Notes under the pieces: generated by a model
Database searches by the model: none
What the model saw: the letters and a program-made list of their open reading frames with translations, nothing else
Told to the model about the DNA's origin: nothing
Source of the DNA: Macrostomum lignano
Taxonomy: Eukaryota
DNA length: 64,000 nt
Reading direction: 5' to 3'
Assembly: GCA_002269645.1 (NCBI GenBank)
Contig: NIVC01000219.1
Coordinates: 286,262 to 350,261, forward strand
Position numbers and translations under genes: made by a program
Shown: positions 20,301 through 27,499 of the stretch, one piece after another
How positions within the stretch are numbered: position 1 is the first letter of the stretch
Layout of the letters: every line of letters starts with the position of its first letter

Positions 20301-20726
20301 TAATCAGGACTGATGCTAGGCAAACGTCGAACTGCAGGTGCAATAGAGTCTACTTCCTGTTCGTTAGGTTGTGTGCTGCAAGCGGCTGGTGATGAGGGCC
20401 TAGCAGGGAGGGTGACAGGACGTAAGCCTGAGAAGGCCCATCAGAGTCCCCATCCTGATTCCAGGCCTGGGAATCCTGCGGAGTACCAGCCAACGTAGTC
20501 TCACCGTCATTGGAAAACCCGTCAAGGTCAGATATCAGAGACTCGGTTATCAAGGAATCCAGACGCCTCGCACAGTTGATGGGGCCCCTCGACATAGCTT
20601 TGCTAGTAGTGCTAGTAGAGTGAGTAGTTCGTTGCGAGTCGCCGGAATTAATGCTGGAATAAATGTGAGGAGATTTCATTTCGCCCGAATAAAATGTAAG
20701 ACGGTCACAAAAAGATAGTGATCATT

Positions 20727-21119
20727 AGTAGTAGTATGTTATAAGGGGCTGCGCCACACTTATTGCTCGGGCGCATTGCGCGCCAGCTCGCTGGTGACTC
20801 AGCCCCTTATAACATACTACTACTACCAGGAGGTCATGGTTGCAATTGTGTGTGATAAATAAATATACATATATCTGTGGGTGAGGGTGTTGAGGGTGAG
20901 GGCATGTGGGGGCATTGGCATGTGGAATATTTCACAGAACACAGATTTTCCGGAATTTTTATACTTTTAAAAAAGGAGGGTGCCCTCGCCCTCATGCCCT
21001 CACTCATTTGAAAAATCACTAAAAACAGGTGAAAAATGACTAAAAACAGGTGAAAATGGTCTGAAAACAGCGATTTTTTGTGATTTTCAAAAATTTTGAA
21101 AAGTGCAATTTTCACGATT
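20727..21119 (+). repeat. Polinton left TIR with terminal hairpin
   Basis: Near-perfect reverse complement of 26139-26532. It is cut on the inside by a Helitron at about 21120. Confidence 0.9.
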
Positions 21120-21733
21120 TCCTATATACTAAAAATGGTCTGTCTGTGTCTATGTGATCGATTAGAGAAAAAATGGCTGTACCGATTTTGTTCGAACTTG
21201 CACTGTTCGATCAGAAATTTTCCCGTGACTGTACATGCATCGTGGCTAAGAAATTTCTTGATGCTAAAGGCATTAAATATTCGAAAAACATGCTTTTTTG
21301 CAAAGGTCAAGCAAACTTTTCGACTTGAAATGCATTGTAAGAATGCTAGACAAAAAACTGACTGGTTGAATTCTGATTCTGAAATAGATTGCATCATAAC
21401 TGAATTGTAACTCCGACTTGAATTGAAAATGCAGTGTGGAAGCGTAGCACCAGACTTGATTTAGATTGCGTAACCATATTGTTAACTGATACTGACTGAC
21501 TGAGAAACTGATTATGTCATAACTGCTTCGTGTGATTTACTCTATGCTTGGATTTTAAAGTGTTGAATTATATAAGTGCAAAATTTGATGTTATCAAAAC
21601 GATGAGAGCTAGCCTAGAGGTGAACAAACTGAACTGTTAAATGCAGCGACGATGGTTCGAATTTTCATAGAGTATAATTTTTTAATTAAAGCTTTTCAAC
21701 GTCAGGAAAACTAAAAGACTTTTTAAAAAGAAT

Positions 21734-22985
21734 CGTCATGTAAAAATCATAGAAGCGTCATGTAAAAAATCATAGAAGCGTCATGTAAACAATCATAGAA
21801 GCGTCATGTAAAAAATCATAGAAGCGTCATGTAAACAATCATAGAAGCGTCATGTAAAAAATCATAGAAGCGTCATGTAAACAATCATAGAAGCGTCATT
21901 TAAACAATCATAGAAGCGTCATGTAAACAATCATAGAAGCGTCATGTAAACAATCATAGAAGCGTCATATAAAAATCATAGAAGCGTCATGTAAACAATC
22001 ATAGAAGCGTCATGTAAACAATCATAGAAGCGTCATGTAAACAATCATAGAAGCGTCATTTAAACAATCATAGAAGCGTCATGTAAACAATCATAGAAGC
22101 GTCATGTAAAAAATCATAGAAGCGTCATGTAAACAATCATAGAAGCGCCATGTAAAAAATCATAGAAGCGTCATGAAACAATCATAGAAGCGTCATGTAA
22201 AAAATCATAGAAGCGTCATGTAAAAAGCATAGAAGCGTCATGTAAAAATCATAGAAGCGTCGTATAAACAATCATAGAAGCGTCATGTAAACAATCATAG
22301 AAGCGTCATGTAAAAAATCATAGAAGCGTCATGTAAACAATCATAGAAGCGTCATGAAACAATCATAGAAGCGTCATGTAAAAAATCATAGAAGCGTCAT
22401 GTAAAAAGCATAGAAGCGTCATGTAAAAATCATAGAAGCGTCGTATAAACAATCATAGAAGCGTCATGTAAACAATCATAGAAGCGTCATGTAAACAATC
22501 ATAGAAGCGTCATGTAAACAATCATAGAAGCGTCATGAAACAATCATAGAAGCGTCATGTAAACAATCATAGAAGCGTCATGTAAAAAGCATAGAAGCGT
22601 CATGTAAAAATCATAGAAGCGTCGTATAAACAATCATAGAAGCGTCATGTAAACAATCATAGAAGCGTCATGTAAAAATCATAAAAGCGTCATGTAAACA
22701 ATCATAGAAGCGTCCTGCAGAAATCGTAGAAGCGTCATGAAATAATCATAGAAGCGTCATGTAAAAAATCATAGAAGCGTCATGTAAACAATCATAGAAG
22801 CGTCATGTAAACAATCATAGAAGCGTCATGTAAACAATCATGGAAGCGTTATGTAAAAAAATCATAGAAGCGTCATGTAAAAAGCATAGAAGCGTCATAT
22901 AAACAATCATAGAAGCGTCATATAAAAAATCATAGAAGTGTCATGTAAAAATCATAGAAGCGTCATGAAAAAATCATAGGAGCCT
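21734..22985 (+). repeat. 23-bp satellite array (ATCATAGAAGCGTCATGTAAACA)n
   Basis: Dozens of head-to-tail copies with period about 23. Confidence 0.97.
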
Positions 22986-23897
22986 CATTTAAAAACTAAT
23001 GAAAGTGTCATTTAAAAAATTAAGAAGCATCATGGTAGAATAAAAGAAGCGTCATGTCAGACATGAAGGGTGTCATGTAAAAATTAAATGCAGCTATAAT
23101 GCTGTGCTGGGGAGAAAAACTGAGACGTAAAGGCTCTCAGAGAATAACTGAGATTACGGGGGGGGGGTTCTGAGATGTCAAAGCAAAAGTCAGAAGCTAC
23201 TTCAAAGTTCATGTACTTTACTCAATTTTTTTATTGCATTATTTGTTGGCTCGCCACGGGGGGGGCGCTGATAGAAGAAGAGTCATGTAAAAAATAAAAG
23301 TAGCACTACGTATACATAAAAGAAAAGTCATGTCGAAGTTAAAAGATTCATTTGGGAATTGCTACGATGTCAAAGCTTGGTGGAAATCGTTATAGTGCTG
23401 TGATTCTTAAAGAAGGAATCACTAAAATGTCAAGGCTTAGGGGAGAAGAATTGCTGAGATTTCAAGGCTTTAGGTTGGGTTAAAGTTAGGTTTAGGTCAG
23501 GTGTGGGTTGAGGGTTATATTTTATCGGATTTCAAGGTTAACAGAATAACAGGGGATTTTTTAGATTTCAAGGTTTATGGGGGCCATCGCTGACATGTTA
23601 AGACTTACGGGGGAATATCTGAGATGTCAAGGTTCACGGGGGTATAAATGAGATTTCAAGGCTAAAGTCAGAAGCTACATGTAGTTTATTGAAAACTTTT
23701 TATTACATTATTTGATGCCTCCTCTGGGGAGGGATCGCTGATAAAAAAAGCGTAATGTAAAAAATAAAATAAGCTTCATGTCGAAGTTAAGAGATTCATT
23801 TGGGAATCTCTACGATGTCGAGGCTTGCAGGGAATCGCTATAATGCTGTAGTAGTGCTATAATGACTCTTAGAGAGAATTACTGAAATTTCAATGCT

Positions 23898-23958
23898 TTA
23901 GGGTTAGGTTAGGGTTAGGGTTAGGGTTAGGGTTAGGGTTAGGCTAGGGTTAGGGTTA
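23898..23958 (+). repeat. Interstitial (TTAGGG)n tract inside the Helitron
   Basis: About nine telomere-type hexamers; the same tract occurs in the other copies. Confidence 0.95.
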
Positions 23959-24119
23959 GAAGGTTGACAGATATTTTTAGATTTCCAAGGCTTATTTGGG
24001 GCATTGCTGAGATGTCAAGGGGGGAAGTTGATATGTTAAAGCTTGTGGGGGGGGGAATTACTGACATGTCAAGGCTTACAAGGTTTGACAGGAGATTTTT
24101 TAAGATTTCAAGGATACAT

Positions 24120-24600
24120 TATCAGAATCTCAGAATGGATTGTGTTGTTGTATTTTTCAACAATAGCTGGCAATGTGTGGAGCCACTTCTGATTACCCTG
24201 TAGATCAAATTCAAACCAGAGTTTATTTGTGAGAGTACGATTGAACCTCTCAATCATTGCATTCTTGGACTCGCCATAAATTGAAAACATCTTGTTAATA
24301 TATTCACCCCTTTCATCCTTCCTTCTAATGTTGTCTTTTGAAAACGAGTATAGCTTGTACATATGCTGATTATAAAACTCCTTGCCTTCATCTACACAAA
24401 GTCTCTCTGATCGTCTTCCTGATTCCTTAAATACTTTTTGGAAAGCTTCTGCAACTTCCGCTCCCGTCTTTGTTTTCAAAGGAACTGCCCAGGCGTAACG
24501 TGTAAAACCATCTATGATAGTTAGAGCATATTTGTAACCTCTTTCGGGCGGTAGGATAATGATATCTGCATGCCAAATTGTGTCTTGCATAGTGAATCAT
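24120..24600 (-). pseudogene. Polinton-type retroviral-like (rve/DDE) integrase, 3'-truncated
   Basis: WHADIIIL...YALTIIDGFTRYAWAVPLKTKTGAEV, LCVDEGKEFYN and KNAMIERFNRTL (D, D, E), then YNNTIHS where the Helitron junction cuts it. Confidence 0.92.
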
Positions 24601-26023
24601 TTTTCTAAATACTCTTGGCTTTCGATATTCTTTATGCAATTTTACTGCATCTTCATAGCTAAGACCCTTACCATAAATTGTTAGACAGTCTATACAATTG
24701 TTGGGGTTGTGAGTATGAATGCCTAATCCAAACCGAACTTTAGCCTTGATAATACGCTTTACTAGATTTCGAATGAGTCTCTCTTTCACAGACAAGTCAC
24801 TGGTTGGAATAGCATCTAAATCAGCTATCATTTTTTCATCAGCTATATGCTTCTTTGCTAGAGCTTCCTCTGGATTTGAAGAAGTGTTTTCAGCATCTCT
24901 ATAGTTTTTGTCATGATAGTAAGCAGTCCAATCGATTGGGTTAATTGGTAGACTGTCATACCGAGGCCGGTCTGTAATTGGATTGAGTCTCTTGTCTAAA
25001 TTTGTACCGGGCAGTTGATCCTCAGTCTTTCGAAAGAGGCTGGACTTTATCTTAAGGCTTCATCAGGATTGACCAGATCCTTCAGCCCCACCCCCATTAA
25101 GTCTCTGAACCTTCTCCATATCCTTGTCAACTTCGTTCGGACTTAGGAGCTTGGCTGCGGATTTCCACCATGTCCTCAAGCTTGTTACCATCGAACCATA
25201 GGTTCGCGGACGAAGTCCGATTGGGAACAGGAATTACCTGTGTTCCTTCAGAAGATTTCTCAACTGAAGTGGTACTTGAGGCTGTTATTGACGTACTAGA
25301 ATCGGACGGAGTTCCCGCAATTTGAAGGTGTCGCCAATCACTAAGCACTTGTTTAATGTTGGTTATAATGTTTTTGTATTGATCACCATAAAGAAATTTC
25401 AATGCAAATTCTCCTGTTATAAGGGTGATTCCATTGTCTAGTAAAATATTCTTTGGTTCCTTTGTAGTTTGATTGATGCATACATAATACAACTGATAGG
25501 TGGGATAAGAATTTTTATAGTCTAATAGTTTCTGATAATTCCTTTCACGACTTGATGAATTGTCCGTGTTATCAGAAGATTTAAGCTCTAATGCAATCTT
25601 TCGCTCAACGTGAACCAGGTCTATCTTTTTTACCTTCTCGAATCCAAAATAATTTTCTGCTAATATTTCATATAGTCTGCCTAGTCTCATTTGAATAACT
25701 TTAATCTTGTGTGAAATTATTAACTCTTCTTGAAAAAGATCATGAAGAATTTGATCATGCCCAACCTTATCATCAATTGGTTTCAGAAGAATTTCTCGAA
25801 TTGTTTGCTCCATTTTTACTATAGAAACTTTAACAAGTGCTTATTTGATGACTAGCAAGGACATTGACTTCCTCACTCAGGCCACTACGTAACCTGCAAA
25901 AGAATACCCTGGAATATGAAATTCGCCAGGATATTTTCCAGTGGTGAAGATGGGTGGTAGTTTTGTTATAGCTGACTGAATATCTAAGGCATTTCCTAGA
26001 AATATTGGTTTACTGAAGGCCAT
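24600..26023 (-). CDS. Polinton/adintovirus-type phospholipase A2 (parvovirus VP1u-like). Exon 1 is 26023-25892; exon 2 starts at 25011 and runs into the integrase N-terminus
   Basis: Joined reading MAFSK...GEFHIPGYSFAG|PGTNLDKRL...PINPIDWTAYYHDKNY...ADEKMI...KAKVRFGLG contains the Ca-binding loop (Y..GPG) and the catalytic HD. Exon 2 is open from 25011 and in frame with ORF 24427-24831. Confidence 0.88.
25012..25891 (-). ncRNA. Group I self-splicing intron, subgroup IC1, 880 nt
   Basis: The 5' exon ends in U and the intron ends in G. P1 CAGGU/GCCUG has U.G at the splice site; P2.1 GCUAGUC/GAUUGGC; P3 CACCUUCA/UGGGGGUG. Conserved elements: P AAAUUGCGGGAA, Q AAUCCGCAGC, R GUUCAGAGACU, S CUUAAGAUAAAGUC. 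P6 CUCCUAAGUCC/GGAUAUGGAG. Removing it restores AG|PG in frame. Confidence 0.92.
25127..25813 (-). CDS. Intron-encoded PD-(D/E)xK restriction-endonuclease-like protein (putative homing endonuclease)
   Basis: Intact 228-aa ORF starting in the P2.1 loop, with IQMRLG.LYE, KIDL, IALELKS and DNTDNSSS motifs. The last ~75 codons overlap the ribozyme core. Confidence 0.72.
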   Translation of the reverse strand: MEQTIREILLKPIDDKVGHDQILHDLFQEELIISHKIKVIQMRLGRLYEILAENYFGFEKVKKIDLVHVERKIALELKSSDNTDNSSSRERNYQKLLDYKNSYPTYQLYYVCINQTTKEPKNILLDNGITLITGEFALKFLYGDQYKNIITNIKQVLSDWRHLQIAGTPSDSSTSITASSTTSVEKSSEGTQVIPVPNRTSSANLWFDGNKLEDMVEIRSQAPKSERS

Positions 26024-26138
26024 TTTATATATATAAAATTTACTATCGTTAAATTAGATGACACTTTCATATTGTATATACCTGAAATTGCATTAAATTG
26101 ACCCGAGGATCCAACTTTTCTCATGGTTTTAGAGCTGG

Positions 26139-26532
26139 AATCGTGAAAATTGCACTTTTTCAAAATTTTTGAAAATCACAAAAAATCGCTGTTTTCAGAC
26201 CATTTTCACCTGTTTTCAGTCATTTTTCACTTATTTTTAGTGATTTTCAAAATGAGTGAGGGCATGAGGGCGAGGGCACCCCCCCTTTTTAAAAGTATAA
26301 AAATTCCGGAAAATCTGTGTTCTGTGAAATATTCCACATGCCAATGCCCCCACATGCCCTCACCCTCAACACCCTCACCCACAGATATATGTATATTTAT
26401 TTATCACACACAATTGCAACCATCACCTCCTGGTAGTAGTAGTATGTTATAAGGGGCTGAGTCACCAGCGAGCTGGCGCGCAATGCGCCCGAGCAATAAG
26501 TGTGGCGCAGCCCCTTATAACATACTACTACT
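26139..26532 (-). repeat. Polinton right TIR with terminal hairpin
   Basis: Ends ...CATACTACTACT, followed by the TSD ATCATT. Confidence 0.9.
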
Positions 26533-27499
26533 ATCATTGATGATGTCAGCCTACCATGTAACGCAATTGGCCGTTGAATGTGACCATATCTCACACCTAT
26601 CGTTATATGAGTAGTTGTTTACATCTAGCTATCGTGAGTGGGTTCTAGATCTGTTAGAAATGGACTCCACGGGTATTAAATATGATTGATGCCATATCAG
26701 CTTTAAAGCTAGGAGCTTCCATTGAAGAGATTATATTTGGCGATTATTGTTCTGGGATGTTGGCCCTCAGTGTGTTTCTGCAAAGCGTGTAGAACAAAGT
26801 AAATTGAACTAAATACGGAAACAAACCATACGTTATATACTTCGAGTATTTGAACAGCTAGATAATGAGTTCACATTTCCAGGTTAGAAATTAAAGTTAA
26901 AATTTATTTTTAAACGAAGGTAATGGCATCAATAAGCTGGAAAAAAGAATACTAGCTATCCCGTATAAAACGAAATGGCCAGAAAACTGGCTGTGACCGT
27001 CCCACTTGTGACCGATGTCAGAATCGCTGGGGACTGTTTAATGAGACCATTTGTGTTCATGAAAATAAGGGTCGCATGTTACTGTCCACTGTGACCATGC
27101 TTTGTGAACTTTTTGGTCAGGGTCACACCGCTACCGTTTAACTGTGACCGTATTTATGACCATTTTGTTCAAGGTCAAAATTAGTAACAAGAAACTAATC
27201 TATATATTAAAACAAGCAGTTAAAACCCGTGTATTTTTAACCCGGGGAATTCCAATCCCCGGAACTATTTTTGCATGTATTCTGAAATCTGAGGTCATAC
27301 TTGTTATATACTTGTTAACAAAAACTTGTTAATAGTTAGTAGAATAGACGTAAAAATAAAATGGAGTACAATCGTGCAAAATAAGGATTTGAAGCAAACA
27401 GTTGAAATTGTTGGCTGGGGTGCTGCGGAGAATTTCGGGCTATGTCTGTCTGGCTCAAAAACATGTATTGGCAAACTCTGGCCCTTGGATCCTTTGAAA

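Follow-up and report, generated by a model that had tools for sequence, protein, structure and literature searches.

Polintons of Macrostomum lignano that encode an Eco47II-family nuclease in or beside a group I intron lack GGNCC, the word the intron splits, in all stretches tested

A 64,000-nt stretch of Macrostomum lignano DNA (contig NIVC01000219.1, positions 286,262 to 350,261 of the forward strand; here called the window) contains a Polinton whose PLA2X-integrase gene is interrupted by a group I intron, and the intron encodes a nuclease of the Eco47II restriction enzyme family. The explanation we favor, and consider probable, is that the nuclease is a likely dimeric, likely GGNCC-cutting enzyme with no detectable methylase, carried by a Polinton that has no GGNCC in any carrier stretch tested and in which a predicted self-splicing intron interrupts the one site still present in intron-less sisters. 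The explanation starts from what was observed directly, namely the family and fold of the nuclease, the position of the intron, the absence of the site, the strict co-occurrence of nuclease and intron, purifying selection on the nuclease and the lack of a methylase. Taken at its fullest, it would be a case of restriction without modification, in which the site of a 5-bp cutter has been erased throughout the element, so that no Gly-Pro pairs are left, the last site is masked by a ribozyme, and the enzyme acts both as a homing drive and as a shredder of rival viruses; to this fuller version we give an even chance.

The window Polinton (20727-26532) is internally deleted. It is bounded by 377-nt inverted repeats (20727..21102 and 26157..26532) with arms 98% complementary, and by a 6-bp target-site duplication, ATCATT (20721..20726 on the left, 26533..26538 on the right); the left repeat starts AGTAGTAGT and has a terminal hairpin. 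Its assignment to the Polinton/Maverick (adintovirus-like) elements is based on terminal repeats starting AGT, the 6-bp duplication, an rve integrase, a DJR capsid, an A32 ATPase and PLA2X, a name used as in PMC8502044. The capsid and ATPase are encoded by sister elements, as is a D5 primase. A polymerase and a protease were seen in element translations only, the domain scan giving no polymerase or protease family match. The PLA2X-integrase gene is on the minus strand. Exon 1 (25892..26023, 44 codons) ends ...HIPGYSFAG, and exon 2 (24108..25011; PF08398, PF00665) begins PGTNLDKRL, runs into the rve core and is shortened, with a frameshift near 24.6 kb, so that the integrase is broken in this copy. 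An earlier reading of the window, made from the sequence alone, had remarked that the nuclease ORF stays open beside a broken integrase. The remark is true of the window copy but peculiar to it: the 424-codon PLA2X-integrase frame is open in 10 of 20 intron-bearing sister loci, and 12 of 54 nucleases are broken. As evidence of selection the remark gives way to the dN/dS values presented below.

Several other features of these elements were recorded. Each terminal repeat opens with a 32-35 bp hairpin with a GC-rich 36-nt loop (20727-20830, 26431-26536), an unusual end for a Polinton, and at 21700-24100 a 23-nt satellite and a TTAGGG tract stand in place of the element interior. Searching the genome with the nuclease gave 110 matches in two groups: A, with about 85-100% identity to the window copy, and B, with about 67%. 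Wnt gave 86 matches there, which marks the host as an animal. Polymerase-region proteins of both families (L116:5074-6537, L126:1559-4645) contain an Endonuclease VII domain, a second nuclease in the element. A genome search with PF08398 gave at least 150 PLA2X matches, and the top ones, which were examined, come from a third Polinton family, in which the integrase is separate and a GPLNP motif is present. No close relative of the nuclease or of PLA2X was present in a collection of viral contigs.

The nuclease ORF (25127..25813, minus strand) runs uninterrupted from an ATG at 25813 to a TGA at 25127 and specifies 228 aa. The sequence-only reading had described an intact ORF starting in the P2.1 loop, had assigned it by its motifs to the PD-(D/E)xK nucleases rather than the His-Cys box enzymes, had noted a resemblance to Eco47II-like restriction enzymes, and had proposed Pfam, Foldseek or AlphaFold comparison of the nuclease domain. 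These points stood up well. The frame is open, the extended P2.1 stem was located, and all the listed motifs were found (Q41..G45..E49; I64-D65-L66; E76-L77-K78-S79; N82-T-D-N-S-S-S88). RE_Eco47II (PF09553) was the sole Pfam family found, at 30.1 bits against a gathering score of 25.9, and hhalign against an annotated Eco47II-family enzyme gave a probability of 97.9%; no NCBIfam family matched. Neither His-Cys box motifs nor a beta-beta-alpha-metal fold was seen, Pfam giving RE_Eco47II alone and the structural model being of the PD-(D/E)xK type. The nuclease is an Eco47II-family restriction enzyme of the PD-(D/E)xK type, not a His-Cys box enzyme. The domain comprises residues 1-158 (25340..25813), or about 160 aa, and no DNA-binding module is added to it; the codons of the predicted catalytic residues E49, D65, E76 and K78, together with those of the N82-T-D-N-S-S-S88 loop, lie at 25550..25669. 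The earlier reading's view of His-Cys enzymes as the norm for nuclear introns is only partly apt as a comparison, because this intron is in a Polinton gene and not in rDNA.

An AlphaFold model of the nuclease, made with an alignment of 120 sequences, had a pLDDT of 96.5 and showed the restriction-enzyme alpha/beta core with the helix E, the PD aspartate and the (D/E)xK. The best structural match was EcoO109I (Z 9.5, rmsd 3.8, 157 residues aligned), the next having a Z of 7.1. Foldseek gave EcoO109I at E 2e-4 and AvaII at E 3e-3, and among viral models it gave nothing at E up to 0.001. From the ESM Atlas came no more than leads, among them Eco47II and EcoO109I clusters at 0.90-0.91. I-Ssp6803I, which may still share the fold, was absent among the 50 fold matches listed. 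In a weak alignment with AvaII (E = 1), E49/D65/E76/K78 fall on the catalytic positions E123/D147/Q161/K163, and N82-T-D-N-S falls on residues that read two G:C pairs; N85 is conserved in at least 90% of the 120 homologues. The loop correspondence is a lead to GG:CC reading, not proof of it. EcoO109I cuts RGGNCCY and AvaII cuts GGWCC (PMC7337904), and an Eco47II homologue has been predicted to cut GGNCC (PMC10305163). Judged indirectly, by the missing site and the co-occurrence described below, the nuclease likely cuts GGNCC as well. When modeled as a homodimer the nuclease scored 0.48, the best control scoring 0.00, with run-to-run contact agreement of at least 87% and pLDDT of at least 82; of solved one-chain pairs, 21 of 30 attain the mark for a dimer, and of single chains, 0 of 23. 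The pass may be owed to likeness with solved restriction enzymes; on the model, the nuclease is likely a dimer.

The intron that holds the ORF is IC1-like, 880 nt long (25012..25891, minus strand), and lies between a Gly and a Pro codon (GGN|CC). Its borders, from 25891 to the terminal G at 25012, were set by natural intron-less alleles in the same genome, exon 1 ending ...GYSFAG at 25892 and exon 2 beginning at 25011. An Rfam group I match at 25021-25404 scored 87.9 bits, the cut-off being 50. The ribozyme core, P3-P9, occupies 25021..25332, with P7 strands at 25103-25099 and 25047-25043, and P1 (25878..25896) pairs exon CAGGU with the guide GCCUG, placing a U.G pair at the 5' splice site (25892|25891). 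The 3' arm of the extended P2.1 (25333..25353) doubles as codons for residues 154-160, and the 5' arm lies with an AT-rich upstream element at 25814..25856; the stem arms (25832-25856 and 25333-25353) form a duplex of -28.7 kcal/mol, with the ORF looping out of it. In a comparison of 10 related introns, 93% of cells are paired, and both partners change in 12 of the 24 pairs; when the partners are slid, pairing is 34-51%. The intron is predicted to self-splice. One contig (depth 3.3), from a sequencing run only presumed to be RNA, joins an intron-type exon 1 at the exact 5' site, and the variant junction of this one suggestive joint was not found in the genome assembly; the other read-contig joint is the natural intron-less DNA allele. 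The AT-rich element resembles elements that precede other Polinton genes, and it may be the nuclease's own viral promoter.

Introns of the two families differ in detail. A terminal G is present in the window copy and the A copies compared, while most B introns end in A (e.g., L013, L014, L017, L093-L096) and a few in G; an A ending may slow splicing. B introns keep the P7 G-C pair and have compensatory changes adjacent to it. In seven B copies (L015, L018, L032, L185-L187, L197) the insertion site holds a second ribozyme core, missed by the Rfam search, which has P2/P2.1 and P5abc in common with the main intron and has P4, P6a and P7 rewritten and compensated. The 3' splice site of these copies is ambiguous and the in-frame reading is Gly-Ala-Gly; therefore the Pro of Gly-Pro may be dispensable. 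These copies and the A endings both weigh against the explanation we favor. A double hairpin of about 30 nt at 25191-25222 is an optional insert in the intron, is found elsewhere in A and B elements, including L013 (between nuclease and exon 1) and L017 (P5 region), and looks like a tiny mobile palindrome.

The sequence-only reading also had about 75 codons of the ORF pass through P3-P6. The count was right: the ORF ends in the P6b loop, which is 75 codons on from the P2.1 3' arm and 67 on from P3. The resulting C-terminal read-through tail of about 70 codons (25127..25339, over P2.1/P3-P6) is not conserved as protein. Homologues enter the same ribozyme in three reading frames (LQIAG, SKLRE, SNCSG), and the free-standing family B nuclease has no tail, ending at 161-177 aa; these two facts rule out the tail as a selected protein domain. 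A single-sequence AlphaFold run on all 228 aa gave an uninformative pLDDT of 36.8, and disorder of the tail is therefore not supported by structure. The tail is likely incidental read-through rather than conserved protein. At the DNA level, then, the core does encode protein as well as catalyze, as the earlier reading claimed, but the tail probably has no function as protein. Extension of an ORF into the intron core has been termed 'core creep', which the tail here fits; the coding/ribozyme overlap is 227 nt, the longest one tabulated in that source being 81 nt (PMC3073962).

To describe nuclease and intron together, 85 loci were examined, of which the 80 with both exons were kept and 5 were dropped. 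The nuclease was inside the intron at 23 loci and free-standing at 31, 12 loci had the intron only, and 14 had neither. The free-standing gene lies directly upstream of exon 1, and the same site is then occupied by an ORF-less intron of 300-337 nt. All 54 nuclease loci with both exons carry the intron, and no nuclease was found beside an uninterrupted site among the 80 loci; the insertion splits GGN|CC, so the inferred target is destroyed in all 54 carriers. The insertion site is open in 14 of 26 nuclease-free loci, which is not a frequency because these loci were hand-picked, and since copies are related the 54 loci stand for far fewer independent cases. The 12 loci with the intron and without the nuclease count against the explanation we favor. 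The same in-intron layout at the same site was found in an independent metagenome contig (L132). Misassembly or chance is ruled out by that contig, by the 110 genome matches and by DNA-type runs covering the stretch.

Among the 54 nuclease copies, 36 are intact, 12 are broken or truncated and 6 were unscored. D65, E76 and K78 are conserved in all 48 scored copies, and over codons 1-150 the dN/dS was 0.08-0.42 in 15 pairs, showing that the nuclease is under purifying selection. The broken copies would suit a protein that is inactive or has been repurposed, for example as a splicing helper or a DNA-binding protein, and does no cutting. This we regard as very improbable, given the invariant catalytic residues and the low dN/dS, the lack of an open site in any carrier, and the occurrence of ORF-less introns without the nuclease.

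Gly-Pro codons always spell GGNCC, and it is these that the intron splits. GGNCC was counted in 8 nuclease-bearing stretches of element DNA (8.6-17.8 kb); all 8 had 0, where a third-order Markov model gave 3.8-13.0 expected (P 2e-6 to 2e-2), and GGNCC was the most depleted of 32 palindromic words in the 5 carrier stretches ranked. GGWCC and GGSCC were both 0 in carriers, and one-mismatch words were undepleted. Host DNA showed no GGNCC depletion, and in the third, unrelated and nuclease-free Polinton family 5 of 5 elements had 5-17 GGNCC, as expected. Both intron-less A sisters (2/2) had a single GGNCC, at the insertion point, and two intron-less B elements had 2 and 4. The A and B backbones can be aligned over only about 3 of 17 kb, mostly at 64-70%; therefore the purge amounts to about two independent events, not eight. 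With the intron-less A sisters purged and the intron-less B elements retaining only 2 and 4 sites, an enzyme from outside the element, or a shared history, could account for the avoidance. As a further point against the explanation we favor, the B carriers (L126+L013, L127+L128, L015+L208, L209+L018), unlike A, are about half-depleted for CCNGG (5-8 vs 16-17 expected), possibly through the pressure of another enzyme.

The nuclease might instead be a conventional homing endonuclease with a long site (at least 15 bp) centered on GGNCC, the absence of GGNCC being a relic or the doing of another enzyme, such as that of a helper giant virus. Such an enzyme would always be accompanied by an intron at this site, lying inside it or alongside, as the nuclease is, and a long site would spare the host; the purging of the intron-less sisters, and the existence of related restriction-modification pairs in giant viruses, would also be accommodated. 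We nevertheless think it unlikely. A domain of about 160 aa has no added DNA-binding module, bases adjacent to the site vary between alleles and families, and the third Polinton family, in the same host, is unpurged. Further, the purge of GGNCC in every flanking context, GGWCC and GGSCC alike, points to a 5-bp rather than a long recognition site.

With a 5-bp site, the explanation we favor would run as follows. The enzyme would have come from a restriction-modification pair of the giant-virus type, the methylase having been lost, and carriers would have been selected to lose every GGNCC. The intron would remove the last GGNCC at the DNA level, with splicing restoring the protein. GGNCC-free carriers and an intron on the one remaining site thus make self-protection without a methylase likely. 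Faced with an intron-less sister of about 17 kb that has itself been purged, the 5-bp cutter would break the DNA just once, where the intron inserts; the sister would be repaired from a carrier and receive a copy of the intron, so that the enzyme acts as a homing enzyme. Unpurged DNA, whether of other Polintons, a helper virus or the host, would be cut many times, and the enzyme would double as a weapon of competition. The nuclease would be silent in integrated copies and expressed from its own viral-type promoter, the ribozyme tail being incidental. GGNCC abounds in host DNA, and the explanation therefore has to assume tight silencing.

It could also be that the enzyme is purely a GGNCC nuclease for competition or degradation of host DNA, with no homing, that the intron is an immunity patch, and that the patchy distribution results from intron loss and recombination. 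Free-standing copies are in the majority (31/54), a 5-bp cutter would shred unpurged competitors, and a role in keeping out co-infecting viruses has been proposed for marseillevirus systems (10.1101/2019.12.21.884833). When 30 A loci were placed on a tree built from downstream DNA, there were at least 3 changes of intron state, with junction bases tracking the state. The pattern is one of exchange and does not give its direction, so that loss or ordinary recombination fits as well as homing, and gain and loss are indistinguishable. Still, the sole site of the intron-less A sisters is the insertion point, as homing requires, divergent intron types are found on identical exon 2, and the in-intron layout is repeated in the independent contig and implied by the ribozyme-derived tails of many homologues. 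We rate a pure competition role as improbable, a shade below the long-site homing enzyme, and retain homing together with competition as the preferred reading.

The origin of the enzyme was approached through its distant relatives, which are 28-39% identical and reside in giant-virus-like contigs. Their loci include a C5-methylase ORF in 26 of 34 metagenome cases and in 9 of 10 viral ones, two sets that overlap, and one nuclease homologue is fused to such a methylase. All three plasmid matches of that methylase type that were examined, of 15 listed, lie beside Eco47II-family (2) or TdeIII-family (1) enzymes; TdeIII cuts GGNCC. Descent of the enzyme from restriction-modification systems is thus supported by sequence comparison. 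In the Polintons, a tblastn search with the related C5 methylase (E up to 1) gave no match in 14 element loci, there was no methylase among 19 element ORFs scanned, and the genome's 12 C5-methylase matches are all on other contigs. With no linked methylase, the nuclease is not a member of the type II restriction-modification systems. The Polinton-type nucleases form one supported clade, apart from the giant-virus-type relatives. The free-standing B form nests among intron-tailed homologues in both trees (support 94/88, 92/88), and the alternative order of free-standing and in-intron forms was not rejected by the AU test (p-AU 0.26, 0.18). The idea from the sequence-only reading that a restriction nuclease was recruited for homing is borne out as to descent, but the short GGNCC site has seemingly been kept and a long homing site not gained.

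I-Ssp6803I, of a cyanobacterial tRNA intron, is a tetramer with a long target. It resembles the present enzyme in being a PD-(D/E)xK protein of a group I intron, with an ORF that overlaps intron structure (PMC3073962), but belongs to a different branch of the superfamily, and the site inferred here is 5 bp. With the Eco47II-family type IIP enzymes (PF09553), EcoO109I and AvaII, the nuclease has in common the fold, the E/D/E/K positions, the N-T-[DE]-N-S loop, the predicted dimer and likely GGNCC; it differs in that no methylase partner was found, in its size (about 160 aa vs their 230-270), and in that its gene lies within a group I intron of an animal Polinton or next to one. Chlorovirus and marseillevirus restriction-modification pairs, the type of the nearest non-Polinton relatives of the nuclease, likewise place a bacterial-type short-site cutter in a eukaryotic virus, and virus exclusion has been proposed there (10.1101/2019.12.21.884833); self-protection in the Polintons is apparently by site loss and intron, not methylation. 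A 2026 preprint suggests that Polinton-like viruses may encode restriction-modification systems (10.64898/2026.10.13.758929; for other literature see PMC10748475 and PMC3943268). Collaborative homing pairs an ORF-less intron with a free-standing endonuclease that lies beside it and has the same target (Bonocora and Shub 2009, as cited in PMC11296320). Family B shows exactly this layout and family A the composite form at the same site, here with both states in one eukaryotic genome, so that gain and loss of nucleases by mobile introns can be studied directly. The nesting of the free-standing form inside intron-tailed homologues in the best trees is the reverse of the order proposed for collaborative homing, with the AU values given above. 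If the favored explanation is true, a short-site restriction enzyme serves as a homing enzyme whose specificity comes from the composition of the target genome and not from the protein, and an element has a way to keep a restriction enzyme without a methylase. The GGNCC purge would also be a sign that in this animal Polintons compete in the form of free viruses, and a general method is offered, in which the target of an orphan viral nuclease is predicted from the word missing in its genome.

Within the reach of a literature search that covered few subscription papers, no paper described this enzyme in either an intron or a Polinton, and none described Polintons purged of GGNCC or animal Polintons with group I introns. 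The enzymes of nuclear rDNA introns are all, by published description, of the His-Cys kind with sites of 15-20 bp, and reviews place nuclear group I introns in microbial rDNA only (PMC3679873). The present introns are likewise nuclear group I introns, but they lie in protein genes of an animal nuclear genome and have a restriction-type enzyme. Protist Polinton-like viruses have group I introns of 309-376 bp with no enzyme annotated (PMC12220804); both sets are in integrated Polinton-type elements, and the present one differs in its animal host, its PLA2X-integrase gene and its restriction-type enzyme. Finally, related group I cores, with 65-82% identity and several to a contig, were present at 124 viral-contig loci with the ribozyme motif (L214-L337), some in giant-virus bins, which had neither the nuclease nor PLA2X; by sequence, these cores are a possible source pool for the ribozyme.
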